A stretch of 64,000 nucleotides of DNA from Myxococcota bacterium (GCA_022710975.1 JAKLGA010000011.1:14678-78677); one strand, 5' to 3'. Numbered from the stretch's first letter, positions 16,586 to 41,000 are shown. Notes: generated by a model from the sequence alone, not told the origin. Numbers and translations are program-made.

Positions 16586-18661
16586 CTAAAATTCTTCGGC
16601 GGAGTCGCCCTCGTCCCCGCCGCCCTGGATGCTCTGGATCATCTTCTTGCACTTGGCGTAGTACGGGTTGCTCTTGTTGACCATCTGGGTGACGGTCTGG
16701 CAGGTGGAGATGGCCTTCTCGGGGCTGGTGGCCTTGATCACGTAGGCCGTCTCGAACAGCTTCTTGGCCTCGACCTCCAGCTTCTTGATGCGATCCTCGG
16801 CCTGCTTGAGGTCGGGCTTGTACTTCAGCGCCAGGGTGTAGCTGTCGTAGGCCAGCGGGTACTTGTTGCTGGTGTGGGCGTCCACGCCGCGCAGGAAGTA
16901 CACCTTGCCCAGCGTGCCCTTGACCTTCTCGGTCACCTCGCCCTTGCCCCCGCCCAGCTTCCTGTCCAGCTCGATGGCGCGGGCGAGCATCTTGATGGCC
17001 TGCTCGGCCTGGCCCGGGTTGTTGGCCATGCCCAGGCCGTTCTTGGCGTGCTGCTGGAACTCGCGCAGCGACTTGATGCCGTCCTGGCTGACGCCCGAGG
17101 AGGAGGCCTGGGCCAGGGCTTCGTCGATCTTGTTGGCCCGGTAGAGATCCAGGCACTGCCCGGCCAGCAGGTACTGCGACTTGACCACGGGGGGCGGCTT
17201 CTCGACCTTGGGCTTCTTGCAGCCCTTGCCCACGCAGGGCGGCGGGGCCACGGGCCTGCGCAGCGCGGCCTCGGCCTTGCGCTTGATGTCGCTCGCCACC
17301 GGGTCGTCCGGGAAGGAGCGCAGGATCTCGTCGGCGGTGGTCTGGGCCTCCTCGTAGCGCTTCTCCGCCAGGGCCGTGCGGGCCCGCTCGGTCCGGTCCG
17401 TGCGCAGGCCCTCCTCGGCCTGGACCTTCAGCTCCTGGGCGGTCTTGGTGGAGCTGGACTCCGCGGCCAGGACCGGCGTCAGGGCGGCGATGGCGCCCTC
17501 GTAGTTCTTCTCGTCCAGCTTGGCCCGGGCGTCGCCCACGGCCCGCTCGGCCTCGACCTCGCCGTCGATGGTCTTCTTGTAGCGCAGGACGTCCTCGTCC
17601 TCGGGCAGCAGCTCGAAGACCCCCGCCAGGAGCTTCTGCGCCTCGCCCCACTTGTTCTCGCCGACCAGCTTCTTGACCTCCTCGAAGTCCGTGGCGGCCT
17701 GCGCCAGGGCGGCCTCCTCCTCCGCGGCCGCCGCGGCCGCGGCCTCGGCCTCGGCGGCGGCGTCCAGCTCGGCCTGGCTGGGCCCGCTCATCTTCTTGGC
17801 GATGCCCAGGACGCCGATCAGCACCACCAGGACGCCGCACACCATGAGCATCTTCTTGCGCTTCTTCTTCTTGGGCGACGGGATGCCGTGGCCGGTGACG
17901 TTGGTCCCCTCGCCCGTCTCGTTCACCGCCTCCAGCATGGCCGTGGCGTTCTGCCGGGGGGACCTCGGCCCGCCCCCGCCGGGGGCGGTGAACACGATGC
18001 GGGCGTCGCCGATGTGGATCTCGTCGCCGTCGTAGAGCGGCTCGTCGGTGATGCGCTTGTCGTTGAGGAAGGTGCCGTTGCCGGACTTCTGGTCCACCAG
18101 GTGCCAGGCGTCGTCCTGCTTCTCGATGACGGCGTGCTGGCGGGAGACCAGCTGGTCGGGCAGCACCACGTCGCACTCGGGGGAGCGCCCGATGACGAAG
18201 CGCTCCTTGACGATCTCCACGTCGGACTGCCCATCCCCGGTCTCGATCGTCAGCACCGGCACCGGCTCGTTGGTCACGTCGGCCATGTTCAGGATGGCGG
18301 TCTTGTCGGCCGGGGTGGCGGGCGCCGCCGCCGGCAGCTCGCCCACGAAGGTCGCGCCCGCGTCGCCCGGCGGCGCCTCGCCGAACACCAGGGCGCCGGA
18401 GTCGGGCAGGGCGTCGGCGTCGGGATCGCTGAGATCCGCGTGCGGCGCGAACTCGCCGGTGTCCTCCTCCTCGGTCGGCAGGGGCGGCGGCCCCCCGCCC
18501 TCGGGCGCCAGGCCGCGGCGCGAGAGCTCGCGGTGAATCGGACCGCCCTGGCCGCCCACAGCCTCCAGCTCCTCGTCGGTGGTGTGCTCGCTGCTCCCAC
18601 CCTCCTCATCGGGCGCGGGCACGGGCCTGCGGCGCCGGCGCGATCGGATGTCCTGGGACAT
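16586..18661 (-). CDS. FHA-domain membrane protein with an extracytoplasmic coiled-coil/TPR-like region
   Basis: The ATG at 18661 follows GGGAG. The FHA core is 'FVIGRSPECDVVLPDQLVSRQHAVIE...GSGNGTFLNDKRI'. A Lys-rich stretch precedes the transmembrane segment 'MLMVCGVLVVLIGVLGI'. Confidence 0.75.
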   Translation of the reverse strand: MSQDIRSRRRRRPVPAPDEEGGSSEHTTDEELEAVGGQGGPIHRELSRRGLAPEGGGPPPLPTEEEDTGEFAPHADLSDPDADALPDSGALVFGEAPPGDAGATFVGELPAAAPATPADKTAILNMADVTNEPVPVLTIETGDGQSDVEIVKERFVIGRSPECDVVLPDQLVSRQHAVIEKQDDAWHLVDQKSGNGTFLNDKRITDEPLYDGDEIHIGDARIVFTAPGGGGPRSPRQNATAMLEAVNETGEGTNVTGHGIPSPKKKKRKKMLMVCGVLVVLIGVLGIAKKMSGPSQAELDAAAEAEAAAAAAAEEEAALAQAATDFEEVKKLVGENKWGEAQKLLAGVFELLPEDEDVLRYKKTIDGEVEAERAVGDARAKLDEKNYEGAIAALTPVLAAESSSTKTAQELKVQAEEGLRTDRTERARTALAEKRYEEAQTTADEILRSFPDDPVASDIKRKAEAALRRPVAPPPCVGKGCKKPKVEKPPPVVKSQYLLAGQCLDLYRANKIDEALAQASSSGVSQDGIKSLREFQQHAKNGLGMANNPGQAEQAIKMLARAIELDRKLGGGKGEVTEKVKGTLGKVYFLRGVDAHTSNKYPLAYDSYTLALKYKPDLKQAEDRIKKLEVEAKKLFETAYVIKATSPEKAISTCQTVTQMVNKSNPYYAKCKKMIQSIQGGGDEGDSAEEF

Positions 18662-18748
18662 GGGCCTCGCTCCCTTCGGGCCGGCCCGGCTCGCGCGCCG
18701 GACCGGGGCTCATTCTAACACGACTTCCGGGCGGTCGCCCCGCCCGGG

Positions 18749-21385
18749 TCAGTACATCCGGTCCACCTTGAAGAACTGGTCAGGGGCCGCCACGTCCGCC
18801 GAGGGCAGGTACTCCTTCGGCTCCTTGCCCTGCAGGAACGCCTCCATCACCGAGTGCGGCGTGCCCGGACGGGCCAGCAGGCCCGTGCTCGGATCGATGC
18901 GGGCGAAGGTGATGCCCGGGGGCACCTCGAACTCCCCCTGGGGCCGCTCGCCCAGCGCCTGGCGCATGTAGCTGACCCACATCGGCACCGCGGCGCGCGA
19001 TCCGGTCTCCCCGCGGCCCAGCGGATCCTTGGGCTCGTCGTTGCCCACCCACACGGTGGTGACCAGGTCGCGGGTGAAGCCGACGAACCAGGCGTCGGCC
19101 GAGTCGTTGGTGGTGCCGGTCTTGCCGGCCACGGGCGCGCCCAGGCTGCGGGCGTTGGCCGCGGTGCCGCGGCTGGCCACCCCCTCGAGCAGGTGCAGCA
19201 GGATGTAGTTGGCGCGCGGCTCGATCAGCTGCTCGGGCGGCCGCGCCAGGCGGTCGTAGCCGCGGTCGAGCTTCTCGTCCCAGCTCTGCCAGGGATCGAG
19301 CGGGGAGGTGCGGTTGAGGAGCACCCGGCCCCAGCGATCGGTCACCTTGCGCACGAACTCCGCCGGGGTCCGCCGCCCGCCCTGGTTGAACACCGCGTAG
19401 ACCTGGGTGAGATCCCAGGGCTTCAGGCAGGAGGAGCCCAGCGCCAGCCCGAGCTCCTCCCGCAGCGGCGTGGTCAGCCCCAGCTTGTGGGCCCAGGCGA
19501 TGGTCTCCGGGATGCCGACGTCGTCCAGCACCTTGATGGCCGGGACGTTCATCGAGTTGACCAGCGCCATGTGCACGGTGACCTTGCCCTTGAAGTCGGC
19601 GTCGAAGTTCTCGGGCTTCCAGCGGTTCTGGTTCTCGGGGTCGTCGTACACCACGGCCGAGTCGATCAGCACCTTGGCCGGGTTGTACTCCTTCTCCTGG
19701 ATGGCCAGCGAGTAGGTGATGGGCTTGAAGGCCGAGCCGGGCTGGCGGCAGGCCTGCAGCACCCGGTTGAACTCGCTGTCGTCGAAGTTGTAGCCCCCGA
19801 TGATGGCCTTCACGTAGCCTAGCTGGGGCTCGGTGGTGACCAGCGCGCCCTGCACCGCGGGGATCTGGTCCAGGCGCAGCAGCGCCACCCCGGGCGGGTC
19901 CTCGAGCACCTTCCGCAGCGCCGGGGGCTCGTCCCGCATGAGCGCGTCCGCGCTGGTGCGGCGCACCAGGATCACGTCGCCCGGCTTGAGCTTCCGGCGC
20001 ACGTCGTTCACCCGCGCCGAGGCGGACTGGTAGTGCACGGTCGGGTCGGGATCGCGCGCCCAGCGCATGCCCATGACCGGCAGCAGCCCGCGGGCGAGGC
20101 CCACGGACACCAGCGCGCGAGACTCCGAGACCTCGTCGACGATGGCCAGCAGCGGCTGGTCCATGGGCAGCTCGCCGGCCTCGTCCAGCCAGCCCATGCG
20201 GACGAAGTGCTTCTGCGCCGCCTCCAGGAGCTTCTGGCGCTCGGCCGGCTCGGCGAGGTGGAGCAGCGGCCCGCGGTAGCCCTGGCGGTGGTCGATGGAG
20301 ACGATGCCGTCGTTCATGACCTGCTGGGCCGCGAGCTGGTAGTCGAGATCGAGGGTCGTCTCGACCGTCAGGCCGGCCTCGTACACCCCCTCGGTGCCGT
20401 AGCGCTGCTGGAGCTGGCGGCGCACCTCCTCGGAGAAGTAGGGCGAGCGCTGGCGGAAGATGTCGACGATCGGCCGGGCCTGGATGGGCGCCTTGGCGGC
20501 CGCCTCGGCCTCGGCCGGCGCGGCGAAGCCCACTGCCTGCATGCGCTCGAGCACGTAGCTGCGGCGCTCGCGGGCGGCCTCGGGCCGGGCCACCGGATCG
20601 TACTCGGAGGGCGCCTGGGGCAGGCCGGCGATGGCGGTCATCTCGCCCAGGTCGAGCTCCCACACGTTCTTGTGGAAGTAGTTGCGCGCGGCCGCCTGCA
20701 CGCCGTGCGAGCCGTGGCCCAGGTAGATCTGGTTCAGGTACAGGTAGAGGATGTCCTCCTTGCCGAAGGTGGTCTCCAGCCGCCGGGCCAGGATGGCCTC
20801 CTTGAACTTGCGGGTGAAGGTCTTCTCCCGCCCCACGAAGGTCTTGGCCACCTGCTGGGTGATGGTGCTGCCGCCCTGGACCACCTTGCCGGCCTGCAGG
20901 TTCTTGAGCGCGGCCCGCAGGATGCCCATCGGATCGATCCCGGCGTGGTTGAAGAAGTTGTCGTCCTCGGAGGCGATGAAGGCCTGCACCAGGCGGCGGG
21001 GGATCTGGGACTGGGGCATCACGTCCCGGCGCTCGATGGCGAACTCGGCCAGCAGCGTCCCGTCGTGGGAGTACAGCCGGGTGGTGGCCGGGGGGTTGTA
21101 CTGGTCGAGCCGGGGCAGCTCGGGCACCGAGTCCTCGACCGCCAGGTAAATGCTCAGGATTCCAAGGGATCCGCCGGCGAACCAGAACGCCAGGCAGGCC
21201 AGCATCCACAGCGGGACACGCACGAGCAGGGAGCGCCGGCGGCGTGGGTTGGCCACCAGGAGCCGCGGGGCCTGCTTGCCGGAGCCTGCGACCAAAGGCA
21301 CCTCCTCCGAGCGCGAAAGTCTATGTGTTTCGACGGGCCGAGTCAACTCGCGGGTTCGTTTCCGGGCCGCGCGACCGGGTTGCAT
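18749..21385 (-). CDS. mrcA: penicillin-binding protein 1A (bifunctional glycosyltransferase/transpeptidase)
   Basis: The GT51 motifs 'EDDNFFNHAGIDP' and 'GGSTITQQVAK' are present, together with the transpeptidase 'SAFKP' (SxxK) and 'KTGTTND' motifs. The N-terminal transmembrane segment is 'LWMLACLAFWF'. An alternative TTG start at 21295 directly follows GGAGGAGG and may be the true start. Confidence 0.85.
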   Translation of the reverse strand: MQPGRAARKRTRELTRPVETHRLSRSEEVPLVAGSGKQAPRLLVANPRRRRSLLVRVPLWMLACLAFWFAGGSLGILSIYLAVEDSVPELPRLDQYNPPATTRLYSHDGTLLAEFAIERRDVMPQSQIPRRLVQAFIASEDDNFFNHAGIDPMGILRAALKNLQAGKVVQGGSTITQQVAKTFVGREKTFTRKFKEAILARRLETTFGKEDILYLYLNQIYLGHGSHGVQAAARNYFHKNVWELDLGEMTAIAGLPQAPSEYDPVARPEAARERRSYVLERMQAVGFAAPAEAEAAAKAPIQARPIVDIFRQRSPYFSEEVRRQLQQRYGTEGVYEAGLTVETTLDLDYQLAAQQVMNDGIVSIDHRQGYRGPLLHLAEPAERQKLLEAAQKHFVRMGWLDEAGELPMDQPLLAIVDEVSESRALVSVGLARGLLPVMGMRWARDPDPTVHYQSASARVNDVRRKLKPGDVILVRRTSADALMRDEPPALRKVLEDPPGVALLRLDQIPAVQGALVTTEPQLGYVKAIIGGYNFDDSEFNRVLQACRQPGSAFKPITYSLAIQEKEYNPAKVLIDSAVVYDDPENQNRWKPENFDADFKGKVTVHMALVNSMNVPAIKVLDDVGIPETIAWAHKLGLTTPLREELGLALGSSCLKPWDLTQVYAVFNQGGRRTPAEFVRKVTDRWGRVLLNRTSPLDPWQSWDEKLDRGYDRLARPPEQLIEPRANYILLHLLEGVASRGTAANARSLGAPVAGKTGTTNDSADAWFVGFTRDLVTTVWVGNDEPKDPLGRGETGSRAAVPMWVSYMRQALGERPQGEFEVPPGITFARIDPSTGLLARPGTPHSVMEAFLQGKEPKEYLPSADVAAPDQFFKVDRMY

Positions 21386-21442: not shown

Positions 21443-22525
<1,083 letters not shown>

Positions 22526-22543: not shown

Positions 22544-24781
22544 GTGGGGCGCGCGCTGTGCACCGTCCTCCTCGGGCTGCTCGGGCCGCTGTGCCTGCCG
22601 GCCCTGGCCGCGGAGCCGGTGACGGTCGAGCTGTGGCACTCCTACCGGGGGACCGAGCGGGACGCCCTGGAGCGCGCCATCCAGGACTTCAACACCACCC
22701 ACGCCGAGCTCCGCGTGGCGGCCACCTTCGTCCCCTCCCAGTCCTTCGCGGACAAGCTCAACATGACCGTGCCGCGCGGGAACGGCCCGGACGTGTTCAT
22801 CTTCGCCCACGACCGGGTGGGCGCCTGGGCCGACAGCGGGATCATCGCCCCGCTGGACGGCTACCTGACCCCCGGGCTGCTCGATCGCTTCATCGGCAAG
22901 ACGGTCGATCCGCTGCGCTACCGGCGCCAGGTGTGGGGCCTGCCGACCGCCTTCAAGAGCGCGGTGCTGTACTACAACAAGGCCCTGGTGCCGGAGCCGC
23001 CCCAGGACACCCAGGCGCTCGAGGCCCTGGCCCGCGGGCTGGCCGGGCGCCGCGCGGCCGACGGGCAGCCGATCTTCGGGCTGGTGTGGCAGGCCTCCCT
23101 GCTCTACATGCACGCCGGCTTCCTGCACGGCTTCAAGGGCCGGCTGTTCGACGCCCAGCAGAACCTGGCGCTCGACGGCCCGGAGAACGCCGCCTCGCTT
23201 GAGTTCGTGCGCCACCTGGTGCGCGACCTGAAGCTCTGCCCGGAGGACGTGGACAGCATCAAGGTCACCTCGCTCTTCAACGCCGGGCGGGCGGCCATGG
23301 TCCTCAACGGCCCCTGGTTCCGGGCGGAGATCGATCCGGCCGTGGACTACGGGGTGGCGCTCATGCCGGTGCTCAGCCCCACCGGGCTGCGGGCCCGCCC
23401 CTTCGTGGGCAGCGAGGCCTTCCTGCTCTCGGCCCAGGCCAGGCGCCCGGCCGAGGCCTTCCAGGTGATGGAGTGGCTCACCCGCGACGAGGCCGCCCGG
23501 GTGCGCATGCGGGTCGGGCTGCAGTCGGTGGCCAACCTGGCGCTCTACCAGGAGGGGCCGATCGATCCGGTGCTGGCGGTCTTCCGCGAGCAGCTCGAGT
23601 ACGCCGAGCCCATGCTGAACACGCCCGAGATGGGCATGCTGTGGGTGCCCTTCGGCAACGCCATCAACGACGTGATCATCGGCCGGGCCACCCCGGCCCA
23701 GGCCCTGGCGGTCGCCCAGCAGCAGGTCAGCTTCCAGATCCAGGAGTTCCGCAAGGGCGAGACCCTCAAGAGCGGCGGGGGCGGCGGCGAGGCGGCCTTC
23801 GTGCAGGCGATCACCTGGGGGCTGGGCGGGGCGCTGCTGGCGCTGCTCGGCGTGGCCGCGGTCCTGTGGCGGCGCTTCAGGCGCGGGCTCGGCGAGGCCT
23901 GGCGGCAGAGGAGCGCCTACGCCTACATCGCCCCGGCCATGATCGGCACCGCGGTGCTGATCTTCATCCCCTTCCTGGTGGGCCTGGGGCTCAGCTTCTT
24001 CAGCTACTACCAGGGCGACTACTACTACGTCGGCTTCAAGAACTTCGGCGACATCCTGTCGTCCCGCGGCTACTCGCTGACCGACACCTTCAGCTTCTAC
24101 TACAAGCTGTTCATCACCGTGCTGTGGACGGCCACCAACGTGCTGCTGCACCTGGGCATCGGGCTGGGGCTGGCGCTGCTTCTGAAGGATCCGCTGCTGC
24201 GGCTCAAGGGGCTGTACCGGGCGCTCTTGATCATCCCCTGGGCGGTGCCCTCCTACATCACCGCCATCGTGTGGCGCGGGATGTTCGACGCCGAGAACGG
24301 CGTCATCAACCACATGTTCGGGCTGACGGGCTTCAACTGGTGGGGCTCCACCTGGAGCGCCTTCCTGGCCAACCTGGTGGCCAACTGCTGGCTGGGCTTC
24401 CCCTTCATGATGGTGGTCAGCCTGGGCGCGCTGCAGTCCATCCCCCAGGAGCTGTACGAGGCCGCCGACGTGGACGGCGCCACCCGCTGGCAGAAGTTCC
24501 GCTTCATCACCCTGCCGCTGCTGAAGCCGGCCCTGTTCCCGGCGGTCATCCTGGGCGTCATCTGGACCTTCAACATGTTCAACGTCATCTACCTGGTCAG
24601 CCGCGGGGCGCCCAACGGAGGCACCGACATCCTGGTGGTGGAGGCCTTCCGCTGGGCCTTCGAGCGCGGCGACCGCTACGGCTACGCGGCCGCCTACTCG
24701 ACGCTGATCTTCGCCATCCTGTTCCTGTACACCCTCATCACCAACCGCATCACCCGGGCCACGGAAGGAGCGTTCGACTGA
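22544..24781 (+). CDS. fused periplasmic sugar-binding domain (MalE-like) and MalF/UgpA-type permease
   Basis: A GTG at 22544 follows AGGAGG. An N-terminal signal peptide and roughly 400-aa solute-binding-protein fold are followed by six TM segments carrying the ABC permease motif '...GATRWQKFRFITLPLLKPAL'. Confidence 0.75.
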   Translation: MGRALCTVLLGLLGPLCLPALAAEPVTVELWHSYRGTERDALERAIQDFNTTHAELRVAATFVPSQSFADKLNMTVPRGNGPDVFIFAHDRVGAWADSGIIAPLDGYLTPGLLDRFIGKTVDPLRYRRQVWGLPTAFKSAVLYYNKALVPEPPQDTQALEALARGLAGRRAADGQPIFGLVWQASLLYMHAGFLHGFKGRLFDAQQNLALDGPENAASLEFVRHLVRDLKLCPEDVDSIKVTSLFNAGRAAMVLNGPWFRAEIDPAVDYGVALMPVLSPTGLRARPFVGSEAFLLSAQARRPAEAFQVMEWLTRDEAARVRMRVGLQSVANLALYQEGPIDPVLAVFREQLEYAEPMLNTPEMGMLWVPFGNAINDVIIGRATPAQALAVAQQQVSFQIQEFRKGETLKSGGGGGEAAFVQAITWGLGGALLALLGVAAVLWRRFRRGLGEAWRQRSAYAYIAPAMIGTAVLIFIPFLVGLGLSFFSYYQGDYYYVGFKNFGDILSSRGYSLTDTFSFYYKLFITVLWTATNVLLHLGIGLGLALLLKDPLLRLKGLYRALLIIPWAVPSYITAIVWRGMFDAENGVINHMFGLTGFNWWGSTWSAFLANLVANCWLGFPFMMVVSLGALQSIPQELYEAADVDGATRWQKFRFITLPLLKPALFPAVILGVIWTFNMFNVIYLVSRGAPNGGTDILVVEAFRWAFERGDRYGYAAAYSTLIFAILFLYTLITNRITRATEGAFD

Positions 24782-25941
24782 TGCCTCCCGTCCAGCGCTC
24801 CCGGAAGGTGCTCACGCACGCGTTCCTGATCCTGTTCACCGTGGGGGTGATGTTCCCCGTGGCCAAGGTGTTCCAGGTGGCGCTGCAGGACCAGCAGACC
24901 TTCGACATGAGCCTGCTGCCCTTCCCCAAGCCGGCGCTGTTCACCCTGCAGAACTTCTCCGACGTGGTCACCCGCGAGAAGGTGCTGGGGCTCGGGCCCG
25001 AGCTGTCCGGCGCGGAGGTCGAGCGCCTGGCGCGCTTCCTGGCCGGGGTGCCCGGGGCCGCCGAGCCAGCCTGGGACGTGCCGCCGGACCAGGCCGCCTT
25101 CCTGACCGAGAAGCGCTGCTTCGCCTGCCACGCGCTGGGCAGCCAGGGCCGGGCCGGGCTGGGTGGGGACCTGCGGGCCGCCGCCCGGCTGGGGGAGGAC
25201 GGGCTCGCGGCCTGGCTGGCCGCGCCCACGCGCGACCACGCCCGCGCGCTGGGGATCGGCGGGCCCGCGCCGAGCGGCGCGATGGAGCGGCGCGCGGTGT
25301 GGCTGTTCGGCCGCCAGCTCTTCAACAGCGTGGTGGCCGCCCTGGCGACGACGCTGTTCGGCATCTTCCTGGCGTGCACCGCGGCCTACGCCTTCAGCCG
25401 CTTCCGCTTCCCCGGTCGCCGGGCGGGGCTGCTGTCCTTCCTGGTGATCCAGATGTTCCCCGGGACCATGATGATGATCCCGCTGTACATCCTGGTGGAC
25501 AAGCTGGGGATGCTCGACCAGCTCCTCGGCCTGGTGCTGGTGTACTCGGTCAGCGCCATCCCCTTCTGCGTCTGGACGCTGAAGGGCTTCTTCGACACCA
25601 TCCCCAGGGAGCTGGAGGAGTCGGCGCTCATCGACGGGGCCAGCCGCATCCGCATCTTCTGGAGCATCATCCTGCCGCTGGCCCGGCCGGCCATCGCGGT
25701 GACCGCGCTGTTCTCGTTCATGGCCGCCTGGAACGAGTTCATCCTGGCGGCCACCTTCATGAACGACGAGACCGCCCAGACGCTGCCGGTCATGCTGAAC
25801 GGCTACGTGTCCGAGACCACGGTCGAGTGGGGCCACTTCGCCGCGGGGGCGATCATCGTCTCCGTGCCCGTGGTGCTGCTGTTCTTCGTGCTGCAGAAGA
25901 ACCTGGTGGGCGGCCTGACCGCCGGCGGCGTCAAGGGGTAG
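24781..25941 (+). CDS. MalG/UgpE-type ABC permease with a roughly 130-aa periplasmic insertion bearing a CxxCH (c-type heme-binding-like) motif
   Basis: The ATG overlaps the upstream stop (TGATG). The permease motif is 'ESALIDGASRIRIFWSIILPLARPA'. The inserted loop 'EKRCFACHALGSQGRAGLGGDLRAAARLGEDGLAAWLAAP' resembles a class-I cytochrome c. Confidence 0.75.
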   Translation: MPPVQRSRKVLTHAFLILFTVGVMFPVAKVFQVALQDQQTFDMSLLPFPKPALFTLQNFSDVVTREKVLGLGPELSGAEVERLARFLAGVPGAAEPAWDVPPDQAAFLTEKRCFACHALGSQGRAGLGGDLRAAARLGEDGLAAWLAAPTRDHARALGIGGPAPSGAMERRAVWLFGRQLFNSVVAALATTLFGIFLACTAAYAFSRFRFPGRRAGLLSFLVIQMFPGTMMMIPLYILVDKLGMLDQLLGLVLVYSVSAIPFCVWTLKGFFDTIPRELEESALIDGASRIRIFWSIILPLARPAIAVTALFSFMAAWNEFILAATFMNDETAQTLPVMLNGYVSETTVEWGHFAAGAIIVSVPVVLLFFVLQKNLVGGLTAGGVKG

Positions 25942-26025: not shown

Positions 26026-27375
26026 ATGGAAAACCCGTTCGGACTCGAGCGCCCCGGCATCCTGGACCTGGCCCCGCCGCAGCCGCGCACGGTGGAGGAG
26101 ACCGGCCTGCAGCAGGGCTTCCTGGTCGATCTGGCCCTCAAGTTCCTCTACTACGGCGGGGTGATGAGCGGCGTGGTCATCGCCGACGAGATGGGCCTGC
26201 CGTTCGCCGGGGTGATCGAGGACATCATCAACTTCATGGCCCAGGAGAAACAGGTCGACATGCGCGGCGGCAAGGGCTTCGGCCGCGCCTCGGTGGACTT
26301 CACCCTCACCGAGCGCGGGCGCGAGGCGGCCCGCGAGGCCGTGCGGCGCACCGCCTACACCGGCAGGGCGCCGGTGCCGCTGTCGCAGTACACCTCGCTC
26401 GTGCGCCTGCAGATGCAGGACGTGCCCTTCATCAGCCGCGAGGCCCTGACCGAGCACTTCAAGAGCCTGATCCTGCCCGACACGTTCTTCGACCGCATCG
26501 GCCCGGCCATCAACTCCAGCCGCTCGCTGTTCCTGTACGGCCCGCCCGGCAACGGCAAGACCACCGTGGCCGAGATGGTGGCCGACATCCTGGCCGGCGA
26601 GGTGTTCGTGCCCTACGCCATCGAGGTGGACGGGCAGGTGATCAAGGTCTTCGACCCGCTCAGCCACCGGGCCGTGGATCTCGAGCGCGCGGTCAAGCCG
26701 CCGCCCCTCAAGGGCGTGCGCTCGGCGGGCGGGGCGGTGCAGAAGAAGGTCGGCCCGGAGTTCGATCGGCGCTGGCTGCTGTCGCGCCGGCCGTCGGTCA
26801 TGGTCGGCGGCGAGCTGACGCTGGCCACGCTGGATCTGATCTACAACCCCAACACGGCCTTCTACGAGGCGCCCTTCCAGGTCAAGGCCAACGGCGGCAT
26901 GCTGCTGATCGACGACTTCGGCCGCCAGCGGGTGCACCCGACCGATCTGCTCAACCGCTGGATCGTGCCGCTGGAGAAGCGGGTGGACTACCTCACCCTG
27001 CACACCGGCAAGAAGTTCGAGATCCCCTTCGATCAGCTCATCATCTTCGCCACCAACCTGGATCCCAAGGAGCTGGTGGACGAGGCCTTCCTGCGGCGCA
27101 TCAAGTACAAGATCGACGTCTCCAACCCGAGCGAGCCCGAGTACCGGGCCATCTTCCAGAAGGTGTGCGCGGCCAAGGGCATCAAGTACTCGGACGAGGC
27201 CATCAGCTACATCATCGACCACTACTACAAGGCCCACGACATGGAGCTGCGCTCCTGCCACCCGCGCGACCTGATCGGGCTGATGATCGACGTGGCCCGC
27301 TTCCGGGCGGTCCAGCCCGCCCTCAACAAGCAGCTCATCGACCAGGCCTGCAAGTCCTTCTTCGTGATCATGTAA
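26026..27375 (+). CDS. AAA+ ATPase, MoxR/AAA_5-like
   Basis: The ATG at 26026 follows GGAGG. Walker A is 'LYGPPGNGKTT' and Walker B is 'MLLIDDFG'. 'LLNRWIVPLEKRVDYL...FDQLIIFATNLDPKELVDEAFLRRI' matches the MoxR/AAA_5 sensor region. There is a unique 150-aa N-terminal domain. Confidence 0.7.
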   Translation: MENPFGLERPGILDLAPPQPRTVEETGLQQGFLVDLALKFLYYGGVMSGVVIADEMGLPFAGVIEDIINFMAQEKQVDMRGGKGFGRASVDFTLTERGREAAREAVRRTAYTGRAPVPLSQYTSLVRLQMQDVPFISREALTEHFKSLILPDTFFDRIGPAINSSRSLFLYGPPGNGKTTVAEMVADILAGEVFVPYAIEVDGQVIKVFDPLSHRAVDLERAVKPPPLKGVRSAGGAVQKKVGPEFDRRWLLSRRPSVMVGGELTLATLDLIYNPNTAFYEAPFQVKANGGMLLIDDFGRQRVHPTDLLNRWIVPLEKRVDYLTLHTGKKFEIPFDQLIIFATNLDPKELVDEAFLRRIKYKIDVSNPSEPEYRAIFQKVCAAKGIKYSDEAISYIIDHYYKAHDMELRSCHPRDLIGLMIDVARFRAVQPALNKQLIDQACKSFFVIM

Positions 27376-27409
27376 TTCCTGAAAGTCCAGGCGCTACGAA
27401 TGGTTGCGC

Positions 27410-27441
27410 GACCGCCCCCGGGCGGTCGGGGCTATTTTTTT
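27410..27441 (+). terminator. Rho-independent terminator downstream of the AAA+ ATPase gene
   Basis: A GACCGCCC..GGGCGGTC stem is followed by GGGGCTATTTTTTT. A seven-T tract is conspicuous in a roughly 70% GC genome. A consensus TTGACA follows immediately at 27440-27445. Confidence 0.6.
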
Positions 27442-27510
27442 GACACGTTCGGCCTGGGTGTGCTAACGATTCGATTCCAAAGGGATTTGTCCTGCGACGA
27501 GGGTACCCAG

Positions 27511-28266
27511 GTGCGCACCGCATACTTCGAGCTGGACGACAAGACCGAGGAGCTCCGGCACGAGCTCGGGCTCCGCAAGGACGTGGCCAGGGACTTCGAG
27601 GAGCGCTTCGAGGTCTCCTGGATCTTCCACGAGAACGCCCTGGAGGGCACGGTCATCGACGTGTTCGATCTGAAGGCCGCGCTCGACCACGTGACCATCG
27701 GCGACGGGGTGCTCATCCCCACCTACCAGCGCATCCGCAACCACCGGCTGGTCATCGAGAAGATCAGGCAGATGGCCGACGAGCCGGGCAAGAGCGTCAC
27801 GCTCCAGTTCGTCAAGGGGCTGCACCTGCTCCTGTGCCACGGCATCCAGGGCTCCGGCGCCGGGCTGTACCGCAAGGAGATCCCCATTCACCGGACCTAC
27901 TTCCACGACATCGTGGAGCCGGGCAAGATCTCCTACCAGATGAACAAGCTCGTCCGGGACCTCAAGGGCCGGGAGTTCAAGCAGCTCCACCCCATCCAGC
28001 AGGCGGCCGAGGTCCACTTCCGCTTCATGGCCACCTTCCCCTTCGACCAGGAGACGGGCAAGGTGGCCCGGCTGCTGATGAACCTGTTCGTGCTGCGGGC
28101 CAACTACTTCCCGGTGATCATCCCGGACGTGGAGCGGCAGCACTACTACGAGGCGCTGCGGGCCTCGCCCAGCGAGCTGCACGCGCTCATCGTCTACTGC
28201 ATGGAGCAGCAGCTCGAGCGCTCGCTGCGCTTCCTGCGCAACGAGACCCTGACCCCTCCGCCCTGA
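27511..28266 (+). CDS. Fic/DOC-fold protein with a degenerate active-site motif (pseudo-Fic)
   Basis: A GTG at 27511 follows GAGGG at 7 nt; the ORF extends up to 27400. 'HFRFMATFPFDQETGKVARLLMNLFVLRANYFPVIIP' aligns to the Fic core HxFx(D/E)GNGRxxR...LLMN, but the catalytic His is replaced by Phe and the DGNGR by DQETGK. Confidence 0.6.
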   Translation: MRTAYFELDDKTEELRHELGLRKDVARDFEERFEVSWIFHENALEGTVIDVFDLKAALDHVTIGDGVLIPTYQRIRNHRLVIEKIRQMADEPGKSVTLQFVKGLHLLLCHGIQGSGAGLYRKEIPIHRTYFHDIVEPGKISYQMNKLVRDLKGREFKQLHPIQQAAEVHFRFMATFPFDQETGKVARLLMNLFVLRANYFPVIIPDVERQHYYEALRASPSELHALIVYCMEQQLERSLRFLRNETLTPPP

Positions 28267-38492: not shown

Positions 38493-38549
38493 CCTGTCAC
38501 GGCTGCCGGATGAAATGTCGAACGCTGGATCTACCCAAGGAGGGAGACG

Positions 38550-41000
38550 ATGAACGCGATGAGGAAGATGACGAGGATGGTGGCCCTGCTCGGCGCGGCC
38601 TGTCTGCTGGCCATCGGCTGTCAGGACTACACGAACACCCACGAGAAGGTGACCTACCAGGCCCCGCTGCTGACCGGAGAGCAGGACGCCGAGACCTTCG
38701 TGGATCTGGTCGGCGGCCTCGACTTCGGCGCCCAGGCGAGCGGCAACTTCTCCACCCAGAAGATCCTGACCGGCTACGTGTTCAGCGCCAACCCGGGCGC
38801 GCGGGTGACCCTCACCCTGACCGCCGCGAACGGCGAGGATCCGGTCCTGGTGGTCTACGGCCCGCTCTCGGAGCAGGGCATCTGGGGCCGGGCCATCGTC
38901 CAGGACGACGACGCCAAGGACGGCCGCAACTCCGCCATCCACAACTTCAGCCTGCCCGGCGGCGGCCGCTACCTGATCGGCGCGGCCACCTACGACGGCG
39001 CGGTGGGCGGCCCCTTCACCGTGGACCTCGGCTGCAACGGCGAGTGCACCGACCCCTACTGCGGCGAGGTGATGTGCGACCTGTACTGCCCGTTCGGCTT
39101 CATGAGCGATCCGAACGGCTGCGCCATCTGCCGCTGCGTGGAGCCACAGTGCCAGACCGACGAGGACTGCTGGAGCCCGGACGGGATCCCGGGCCGCTGC
39201 CTGAACGGGGCCTGCGTGTTCGGCGAGGACTACCAGTGCAGCGACATGGATCCGACCTGCCCCGAGGGTTTCGAGTGCGTGCTGGACGCCTGCACCGAGC
39301 CGCAGTGCGATCCGGCCACGGGTGAGTGCTGGGCCTGCTCGGGCTACTGCCGCCCGGTGGAGCCGCCCCAGTGCTTCTCGGACGAGGAATGCATCGCCAA
39401 CGGGGTGGCGGGCCGCTGCATCAACGGCCGCTGCATCCAGGACGCGTTGCCCTGCGACATGAACGAGCAGTGCCCGGCCGGGATGATCTGCGAGATGATG
39501 TGCCCGGCCTGCCCGCCCGACGTCGGCGACTGCCCCCCCTGCATGGGCTTCTGCGTGCTCGAGGGCCCGCCCGCGTGTGACGAGGCCACCCCCTGCCCCG
39601 CGGGCATGGTCTGCGCCATGGAGTGCTGGAGCTGCGAGGATCCCACCCAGTGCCCCGAGCCCGTGTGCCAGGGCATCTGCGTGCCCGACCAGGTCGAGTG
39701 CTACTCCGACCAGGACTGCATCTACCCCGACGGCACCGTGGGCTTCTGCGCCGAGGGCCGCTGCGTGTTCCAGCAGATCCCCTGCCTGGACACCAGCGAG
39801 TGCCCGCCGGGCCAGGAGTGCCTGGTGGCCTGCATGGACTGCGATCCGACCGACCCCGACTGCCTGCCCGGCTGCCAGGGGTTCTGCGCCCCGGTGGTGC
39901 AGCCCCAGTGCTACAGCGACTACGACTGCTACGACGCGGCCGGCAACGTGGGCCGCTGCGTGAACGGGCTGTGCGTGTTCGAGCCCCTGCGCTGCCGCCT
40001 GGATTACGACTGCCCGCCCAACAACCGCTGCGACATCGTCGAGTGCGACCCGAACTGCGCGGACCCGCTGGCCTGCTGCTGGGGCATCTGCGTGCCCAAC
40101 GGCCAGCCGCAGTGCTTCAGCGACATGGACTGCATCGCCCCGGACGGTATGCCGGGCCGCTGCGTGCAGGGCTACTGCATCTTCGACGGCTGCGCCTGCC
40201 CGGAAGTGTGGGACCCGGTGTGCGGCGTGGACGGCCAGACCTACGCGAACGCCTGCTTCGCCGACTGCGCCGGCGTGCCCATCGCCTTCTGGGGCGAGTG
40301 CAGCGGCCAGCCGGGCGAGTGCTTCTCGGATCTCGACTGCCCCGCGGGCACGTACTGCGAGCTGTTCCAGGATCCGACCATGCCGCCCGAGCAGGGCGGG
40401 GTGTGCCTGCCCCTGCCGGTGATGGAGTGCCTGGCGGACGCGGACTGCCCCGAGGGCTTCCGCTGCGAGGCCGGCCTGTGCCCGGGCATGCCCTGTGACC
40501 CGGCCACCGGCGAGTGCCCGACCTGCTGGGGCCAGTGCGTGCCGGCCGAGGGCGGCTGCATCCAGACCGGCTGCAGCGGCGAGATCTGCGCCCCCTACCC
40601 GGTGAACTCGAGCTGTGTGTGGCTGCCCGAGTACGAGTGCCTGCAGTTCTCGCGCTGCGAGCTGCTGATGGACGCCGCCGGCCAGCAGACCTGCGGCTGG
40701 TTCCAGACCGACGAGTACCTGGCGTGCCTGGAGCGCATCCAGGGCGGTGGCGAGTGCCAGGCGGACAGCGACTGCCCGGCCGGCTCCTTCTGCGCGCTGG
40801 CCTGCTACGACTGCATGCCCGAGGATCCCAACTGCCTGCCGGGCTGCCAGGGCACCTGCGTCGAGCAGGGCTGCACCTGCCCCGACGTGTACGACCCGGT
40901 CTGCGCCGCGGACGCCGCGGGCGAGCTGCGGACCTTCGGCAACGCTTGCGAGGCGAGCTGCGCCAACGCCCAGGTGCTCTACTGGGGCGAGTGCCAGTGA
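38550..41000 (+). CDS. large cysteine-rich repeat lipoprotein with Kazal-type inhibitor-like domains
   Basis: The ATG at 38550 follows AAGGAGGGAG. The lipobox is 'LLAIGC'. About 14 repeats of 'QC.SD.DC...DG..GRC.NG.C.F' are present. Two Kazal-like segments are 'CACPEVWDPVCGVDGQTYANACFADCAG' and 'CTCPDVYDPVCAADAAGELRTFGNACEASCA'. Confidence 0.8.
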   Translation: MNAMRKMTRMVALLGAACLLAIGCQDYTNTHEKVTYQAPLLTGEQDAETFVDLVGGLDFGAQASGNFSTQKILTGYVFSANPGARVTLTLTAANGEDPVLVVYGPLSEQGIWGRAIVQDDDAKDGRNSAIHNFSLPGGGRYLIGAATYDGAVGGPFTVDLGCNGECTDPYCGEVMCDLYCPFGFMSDPNGCAICRCVEPQCQTDEDCWSPDGIPGRCLNGACVFGEDYQCSDMDPTCPEGFECVLDACTEPQCDPATGECWACSGYCRPVEPPQCFSDEECIANGVAGRCINGRCIQDALPCDMNEQCPAGMICEMMCPACPPDVGDCPPCMGFCVLEGPPACDEATPCPAGMVCAMECWSCEDPTQCPEPVCQGICVPDQVECYSDQDCIYPDGTVGFCAEGRCVFQQIPCLDTSECPPGQECLVACMDCDPTDPDCLPGCQGFCAPVVQPQCYSDYDCYDAAGNVGRCVNGLCVFEPLRCRLDYDCPPNNRCDIVECDPNCADPLACCWGICVPNGQPQCFSDMDCIAPDGMPGRCVQGYCIFDGCACPEVWDPVCGVDGQTYANACFADCAGVPIAFWGECSGQPGECFSDLDCPAGTYCELFQDPTMPPEQGGVCLPLPVMECLADADCPEGFRCEAGLCPGMPCDPATGECPTCWGQCVPAEGGCIQTGCSGEICAPYPVNSSCVWLPEYECLQFSRCELLMDAAGQQTCGWFQTDEYLACLERIQGGGECQADSDCPAGSFCALACYDCMPEDPNCLPGCQGTCVEQGCTCPDVYDPVCAADAAGELRTFGNACEASCANAQVLYWGECQ

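Follow-up and report, generated by a model that had tools for sequence, protein, structure and literature searches.

A cytochrome c-like module predicted in periplasmic loop P1 of a MalG-type ABC permease from uncultured Myxococcota

A MalG-type permease gene in a sugar importer operon

We analysed a stretch of 64,000 nucleotides from a Myxococcota bacterium (GCA_022710975.1 JAKLGA010000011.1:14678-78677; G+C content about 72%), here called the window, and focused on a gene for a MalG-type permease of an ATP-binding cassette (ABC) importer. An earlier note on this DNA had claimed that the permease carries a cytochrome-c-like CxxCH domain in its first periplasmic loop (P1). The gene occupies nt 24781-25941 on the plus strand and encodes a MalG-type protein of 386 residues, assigned by Pfam, NCBIfam and alignment with PDB 2r6g_G, and its translation matches the protein quoted in the note. 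The CxxCH haem-attachment motif is located at nt 25117-25131 (+), exactly where the note had put it, and corresponds in translation to C113/C116/H117.

The operon has the order malK / malE-malF fusion / malG, with malG as its final gene, and the malG ATG shares one base with the stop codon of the preceding gene. The first gene (21443-22525, +) encodes a MalK-type ABC ATPase of 360 residues with C-terminal regulatory OB/TOBE domains (Pfam: ABC_tran 1.4e-34, OB_MalK 1.6e-09, TOBE_2 5e-09), and the same 360-residue MalK call is present on the public contig L081. The second gene (22544-24781, +) encodes a 745-residue protein in which a MalE-like solute-binding protein (SBP) is fused to a MalF-like permease, as assigned by Pfam, NCBIfam and a transmembrane (TM) scan. 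This fusion starts with a signal peptide, followed by the SBP (SBP_bac_1 at 37-318), a Gly-rich linker, an extra TM helix (~residue 417) and a six-TM MalF core (BPD_transp_1 at 544-736), and it is called as a single 745-residue gene on public contigs. While the NCBIfam MalE model spans residues 66-395, the MalF model is matched over profile positions 265-517 only. Thus, the MalF-like part lacks the large P2 docking loop.

All the partners of a type I importer are therefore encoded here, namely a second permease, a MalK-type ATPase and a solute-binding protein, with synteny in about 70 loci. The NCBIfam models for MalG, MalF and MalE are the best models for the operon proteins, and every equivalog cut-off is missed; for MalG, the top family match (NF008231) reaches 182 bits, under the 261-bit cut-off. 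The operon is a CUT1-type (maltodextrin/oligosaccharide-like) sugar ABC importer, the substrate of which is uncertain because these cut-offs are not reached. The malK / SBP-malF / malG synteny is spread over Myxococcota, Bradymonadia and Bdellovibrio metagenome-assembled genomes (MAGs). To our knowledge, the SBP-MalF fusion architecture has been characterised in Bdellovibrio only. The maltose/maltodextrin transporter of Bdellovibrio bacteriovorus has MalE fused to MalF, according to Licht et al. 2019 as cited in PMC6906923. The Bdellovibrio-type transporter shows the same N-terminal fusion through an extra TM helix as the window operon. In contrast to the window, the MalG of Bdellovibrio-type loci (L057) has no cytochrome insert.

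As claimed in the note, the canonical ABC-permease motif of MalG is intact. This EAA motif, at residues ~279-299 (nt ~25615-25677), is invariant among orthologues and forms part of the conserved permease core (25360-25905, +), which includes TM2-TM6 and the Pfam domain BPD_transp_1 (PF00528; residues 194-375, E 5e-22, 78.9 bits against a cut-off of 26.4 bits). The best PDB match of the protein is 2r6g_G (E 3.6e-44), and hydropathy gives six TM segments starting at ~9, 179, 215, 242, 292 and 348. The loop between TM1 and TM2 is predicted to be periplasmic, because basic residues (R6, R8, K9) precede TM1 and the sequence aligns colinearly with E. coli MalG, a protein of established topology. The enlargement of this loop, which the note had reported, was confirmed, but its placement of TM2 at 195-225 is slightly late, as hydropathy puts the start of this helix at ~179-183.

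The E. coli MalFGK2-MalE complex (PDB 2R6G) and the window importer share a homologous MalG core with six TM helices and the EAA motif, a MalK-type ATPase with regulatory domains, and a MalE-like SBP. The window importer differs in that P1 is ~100 residues longer and carries the cytochrome-c-like module, in that MalF lacks the immunoglobulin-like P2 domain, and in that the binding protein is fused to MalF.

The P1 insert and its homology to c-type cytochromes

Residues 6-51 of E. coli MalG (2r6g chain G) align to residues 2-47 of the window protein, and residues 85-296 to 180-386, so that ~133 residues stand in the window MalG where E. coli MalG has ~34. The insert itself, ~100 residues long, was delimited with the help of two relatives that lack it. 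At the junction, P0039 reads ..VVSRSNTEG-HWVFGHQL.. and P0043 reads ..RSKTEGFGAEEKQTWVFGHQL.., while the window protein reads ..VVTREKVLG[~103 aa]VWLFGRQL... These junctions, along with the E. coli alignment, set the boundaries of the complete insertion at residues ~71-173 (24991-25299, +). The insert apparently sits at the tip of a small hairpin, in which ..REKVLG is paired with VWLFGRQL... In a full-length AlphaFold model, strands 66-69 and 171-174 flank the insert and a helix covers residues 77-88 inside it; this model was built from 26 sequences, is poor (predicted local distance difference test score, pLDDT, 61), and no conclusions are based on it.

The insert starts with a helix, PELSGAEVERLARFLAGV (residues ~73-92; 24997-25056, +), which is conserved in alignment A1. 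It is followed by the cytochrome-c-like core (residues ~98-170; 25072-25290, +), delimited by hidden Markov model (HMM), hhalign and PDB profile matches, in which the motifs occur in the order N-helix, CxxCH, GLGGDL, WL..P helix, PT..ARALGI helix and Met loop. The P-S-G-A-M168 loop (25270-25284, +) holds a candidate distal (sixth) haem ligand, M168, in a conserved PxGxM motif 51 residues past CxxCH. The linker between the first helix and the core (25042-25080 in the window; A1 columns 101-135) is highly variable in length among orthologues, and it is poly-acidic in many of them, with D/E runs of up to ~20 residues; in the window protein it is short and neutral.

Homology was analysed with two profiles, A2, built from the insert only, and A3, which combines the MalG inserts with stand-alone cytochromes. 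Against the PDB, A2 gave 20 matches, every one a c-type cytochrome, and the 59 sequences that A3 matched at E ≤ 0.01 are without exception class I cytochromes. Among solved structures, the best full-length relative is a SCO1/SenC-cytochrome c protein (PDB 2L4D; E 9.4e-7 against A3), with an alignment that starts ahead of CxxCH and takes in the WL..P helix, Met loop and C-helix. Here too a cytochrome c is fused to a non-respiratory periplasmic protein. In 2L4D, however, the fusion is terminal and involves a copper chaperone or thiol-oxidoreductase fold, whereas in the window the module is inserted within the loop of a membrane transporter.

An exhaustive HMM search of 1.84 billion representative proteins with A2 produced 388 matches at E ≤ 1e-3. 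Among the best 150 of these 388, leaving aside MalG's own representative P0006, nearly all carry CxxCH, mostly with 2-8 motifs each, and no other ABC permease was found among these best 150. A word-indexed protein search with A2 gave no match at E ≤ 1e-3. The closest relatives (P0121-P0136; E 1e-30 to 1e-14 against A2, and 1e-30 to 1e-20 for the P0121 family) are proteins of ~390 residues that carry two cytochrome domains behind four to six N-terminal TM helices, together with single-domain forms. They reach the Pfam Cytochrom_C gathering score across the full length of the model, and P0131, a PF13442 protein (199.7 bits), is matched by A2 at E 8.4e-18. Nearest to the insert, at 27-39% identity, are the uncharacterised tandem dihaem cytochromes P0121-P0130 and the single-domain proteins P0132, P0135 and P0136. 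The stand-alone cytochromes and the insert share the pattern C-x-x-C-H..G.G...GG.GG.L....L..WL..PT..NA..LgIR..P.GaM.

The reverse comparison gave the same picture, as an HMM built from the stand-alone cytochromes alone matches residues 105-170 of the window MalG with 52 bits (E 9.5e-17). Using hhalign, the insert-only profile aligned with canonical CBB3-type repeats with a probability of 97.7% (E 1.5e-12). Because the profile searches, the reverse HMM and hhalign agree, the proposal that P1 carries a cytochrome-c-like insert holds at the level of sequence, where membership of the insert in the cytochrome c superfamily is well supported.

Conservation and distribution of the insert

The earlier note had tied its proposal to the presence of the insert and of CxxCH in orthologous permeases. 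In a search space of 5.8 billion proteins, we found ~40 clusters of full-length orthologues that bear the insert (61-95% identity), as well as many MalGs of ~280 residues that do not. CxxCH is present in 38 of the 39 complete inserts, the exception being P0033, which reads CFACD, and PxGxM is present in all 39. The proposal thus withstands this check. The invariant positions of alignment A1 include both cysteines, C113 and C116, as well as G123, G126, G128, G129, L131, P164, G166 and M168, while H117 is nearly invariant. The C, C, H, G and M residues remain invariant when stand-alone cytochromes are included (A3).

A subclade of the insert-bearing proteins (P0017, P0020-P0023, P0025-P0028, P0031-P0035) lacks ~15 residues (A1 columns ~192-206). 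These correspond to the PT..NA..LGIR helix, which separates the WL..P helix from the Met loop, while CxxCH and PTGAM are retained. P0033, with CFACD in place of CFACH, belongs to this subclade.

The insert was found in 13 species-level genomes, all of them uncultured Myxococcota MAGs. Compared with the window, their permease cores are 83-89% identical, whereas their insert loops are 42-55% identical and retain the motifs. Therefore, the haem-binding residues appear to be under purifying selection. When a neighbour-joining tree was made from the C-terminal 205 residues, the 40 insert-bearing sequences fell within one clade of 46 members; the remaining six comprise truncated gene calls together with P0039 and P0043, which lack the insert. 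This distribution fits a single gain of the insert, possibly followed by a loss, and, judged from these sequences, the insert is restricted to one clade of uncultured Myxococcota.

These data also bear on the possibility that the domain is an artefact, arising from a chance motif, an assembly chimera or a mis-called frame. Nothing was found in favour of this. Public gene callers report the identical 386-residue MalG product on 13 independent metagenome contigs, and the same arrangement recurs in the ~40 orthologue clusters and the 13 species-level genomes. Moreover, across all six frames of the 64-kb window, malG is the only open frame of at least 150 residues with a CxxCH motif. When the window and 13 orthologous loci were considered together (255 kb), 14 of the 15 CxxCH-bearing open frames of at least 80 residues were malG frames, and all 14 match a cytochrome c HMM built without MalG sequences. 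We consider an artefact excluded by the replication on contigs, the conservation in orthologues and the uniqueness of the motif, and give it practically no chance of being right.

Other MalG lineages carry different material in P1. A set of relatives of 605-651 residues (P0061, P0082, P0084, P0088, P0096, P0106, P0117) has an N-terminal multi-TM extension of ~230 residues and a Cys-rich P1 insert of ~130 residues (..AACYRRA..GSAC.D.VC..). We rejected the idea that this is a larger version of the same insert, as it is a different Cys-rich insert without CxxCH. In addition, P0048 has a small P1 insert with 2 Cys. From these sequences, P1 seems to be a hot spot for insertion in this MalG lineage.

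The nearest relatives offer a possible origin for the module. Unlike the insert, the tandem cytochromes have four to six TM helices at the N-terminus, and both of their domains are complete and possess a C-terminal helix; a transporter domain is absent. The N-terminal helix of the insert shows a weak likeness to the C-terminal helix found in the stand-alone family (L-[ST]-x-E-[ED]-x-x-x-L-x-x-[WF]-L). A junction HMM of the tandem proteins, which represents domain 1's C-helix, the linker and domain 2 as far as its Met, is colinear with the insert in roughly half of the MalG orthologues (residues ~75-170). An HMM of the helix only gave a mean of 0.7 bits for the real segments and -6.5 bits for composition-matched shuffles, with the window at 3.2 bits (~99th percentile); this is a small signal from mutually related sequences, and we treat it as a lead and not as a finding. 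We hypothesize that the module may be a tandem dihaem cytochrome captured out of register and, in effect, circularly permuted. It would then be made up of domain 1's C-terminal helix, the linker and domain 2 as far as the Met loop, so that the closing helix would lie N-terminal to CxxCH.

Proposed role of the module and alternative readings

In E. coli, MalG P1 and MalF P2 touch MalE's N-lobe over the course of the catalytic cycle (PMC6906923). Since E. coli P1 contacts the binding protein and MalF P2 is absent here, the haem module would be located at the docking interface, and the same contact leads us to favour redox-tuned docking. Our model suggests that a class-I-type cytochrome c module of ~100 residues was grafted into the tip of the MalG P1 hairpin in one Myxococcota clade. 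One haem c would be bound covalently at C113/C116 by the host cytochrome c maturation system, with H117 and M168 as its axial ligands. The redox or ligation state of this haem would alter the docking interface and tune the docking of the binding protein, and ATPase activity and sugar uptake would thereby track the redox state of the periplasm or of the respiratory chain. We give this explanation, a haem-c module in P1 that modulates docking and transport by periplasmic redox state, a probability of roughly 0.45. Its parts differ in strength. The insert is probably a real haem-binding cytochrome module, and from its motifs we infer haem attachment and His/Met ligation, M168 being the likely Met ligand; redox gating is speculative, and we think it less likely than not that the insert gates transport. 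The boldest version, that this is the first ABC importer with covalent haem c in a membrane subunit, with redox-gated uptake and a module that is possibly circularly permuted, seems to us unlikely.

The haem or redox sensing inferred in the earlier note is one of several possible roles. A precedent for sensing comes from Geobacter, a member of the former Deltaproteobacteria, whose chemoreceptors GSU0582 and GSU0935 sense through a periplasmic domain with covalent c-haem (PMC3460858, PMC8396549). Those sensors have a PAS-like fold and a signalling output, whereas the window has a class-I-type cytochrome in a transporter. Membership of the insert in the PAS/Cache-type c-haem sensors was rejected, as its homology is solely to class I cytochromes and no signalling domain is present.

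Several points weigh against redox-tuned docking. His/Met class I cytochromes are usually electron carriers, not sensors. In the DNA covered, the window and the loci, no ccm or ccs maturation genes were found. The remaining points concern the insert itself. Taken alone, it stays under the Pfam gathering scores (12.8-16.2 bits against 21.3 and 27 for Cytochrom_C, PF00034, and Cytochrome_CBB3, PF13442), with sub-threshold cytochrome matches in 15 of 25 insert sequences. A confident AlphaFold model of residues 95-200, made from 52 aligned MalG inserts and stand-alone domains (pLDDT 87.3), runs from an N-helix and CxxCH through two middle helices and a long Met loop to a last helix, TM2. This predicted helix order is class-I-like, but Foldseek found no significant match to the model in the PDB (top match a dihaem cytochrome c, E 1.8, template-modelling score 0.23), so that support from structure is weak. 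The C-terminal helix of class I has no clear counterpart past the Met loop, where the chain passes directly to TM2, and P0033 has lost the His of the motif.

The low Pfam scores, the missing structural match, the absent C-terminal helix and the lost His in P0033 would also suit a relic that derives from a cytochrome and binds no haem, with the two cysteines serving as a disulfide or a metal site. Such a relic would not readily explain why His is kept in 38 and Met in all 39 of the complete inserts, or why GLGGDL and WL..P, motifs typical of a haem pocket, persist while the insert has diverged to 42-55% identity. We regard it as improbable.

Alternatively, the haem-bound fold could be a mere stable scaffold in the periplasm, a structural docking module that replaces MalF P2 by capping the tethered binding protein or offering it a docking surface, and has no redox role; CxxCH and the Met would then be kept since the fold requires haem. 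The P2-less MalF, together with the contacts that both E. coli loops make with MalE's N-lobe (PMC6906923), argues for this, as do the non-haem P1 inserts of the sister lineages (the 605-651-residue relatives and P0048). Because these lineages hold different inserts there, P1 looks like a site for accessory modules in general. However, the insert-less P0039, P0043 and L012-L017 share the same P2-less fused SBP-MalF architecture, which suggests that the module is not needed for docking, and a cofactor-dependent fold would be costly for a pure scaffold. We therefore see the scaffold as an unlikely explanation, though one to be taken seriously.

The carrier role typical of His/Met class I cytochromes suggests a further alternative, in which the module is a tethered electron carrier for a periplasmic redox enzyme, such as a peroxidase or a sugar-oxidising enzyme, and the permease acts as its anchor or co-localiser. 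The nearest relatives are indeed membrane-anchored dihaem cytochromes, and one of them, P0123, has its gene directly downstream of one for a dihaem cytochrome c peroxidase of the CCP_MauG type (L085, 4951-7203). This adjacency suggests that some stand-alone members of the dihaem family donate electrons to a peroxidase. Against a carrier role, the P0122 locus, the sole other long locus checked, has no peroxidase neighbour (the P0121 contig is too short for gene context), and no redox enzyme is conserved beside the operon in the window and the 13 loci. An internal loop of a polytopic transporter would also be an unusual anchor. We judge this alternative improbable.

The view in the earlier note that such a fusion is undescribed is consistent with what we found. 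Nothing relevant to an ABC permease with a cytochrome c or CxxCH domain turned up in the open-access literature, a negative that is not proof, and the precomputed Pfam annotation gives PF00528 alone for every family member. Both components are known, and their combination is new as far as we could determine. In addition, the NCBI gene models of P0037, P0038 and P0040 begin within the P1 loop (e.g. MGTFMKGKGCFACH...), with the loss of TM1 and part of the module. Standard annotation misses the module because Pfam gives PF00528 only and some NCBI models start within the loop. NCBI orthologue gene models at the loci L001 and L004 likewise start within P1.

The known regulation of type I ABC importers acts on the cytoplasmic ATPase, as in inducer exclusion and trans-inhibition, or through the binding protein. 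If redox-tuned docking holds, importers would have a new control point in the form of a redox cofactor on the permease's periplasmic face, and nutrient uptake would be coupled to respiratory or oxidative conditions outside the cytoplasm. A further consequence would be that a cytochrome c domain can mature within an internal loop of a polytopic transporter, and other cofactor modules in transporter loops may be similarly hidden from annotation.

Finally, we scanned the gene neighbourhood for a functional partner of the module. The operon is bordered by housekeeping genes with no relation to it, which encode PBP1A, an FHA protein, an AAA ATPase, Fic, and M1 and M3 peptidases and are conserved as general clade synteny only. 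Divergently upstream of the operon, according to the annotation of the identical public contig L081, lie genes for a class A penicillin-binding protein (Transgly, PCB_OB, Transpeptidase; 18749-21209, -) and an FHA/YscD-like protein (16589-18709, -). About 85 bp past malG is the gene for an AAA-type ATPase of 449 residues (26026-27375, +), with a Walker A motif only and no family assigned, followed by one for a Fic-domain protein (27400-28266, +). The AAA-type ATPase is found downstream of malG in all 13 insert-bearing loci (75-81% identity), a linkage that probably reflects synteny at the level of the clade and not a functional link. Further along the window, an 828-residue protein (38514-40997, +) shows matches to Antistasin and to the Cys-rich repeat of the Dickkopf N-terminal family. 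This is unusual for a bacterial genome, as both families are mostly eukaryotic.

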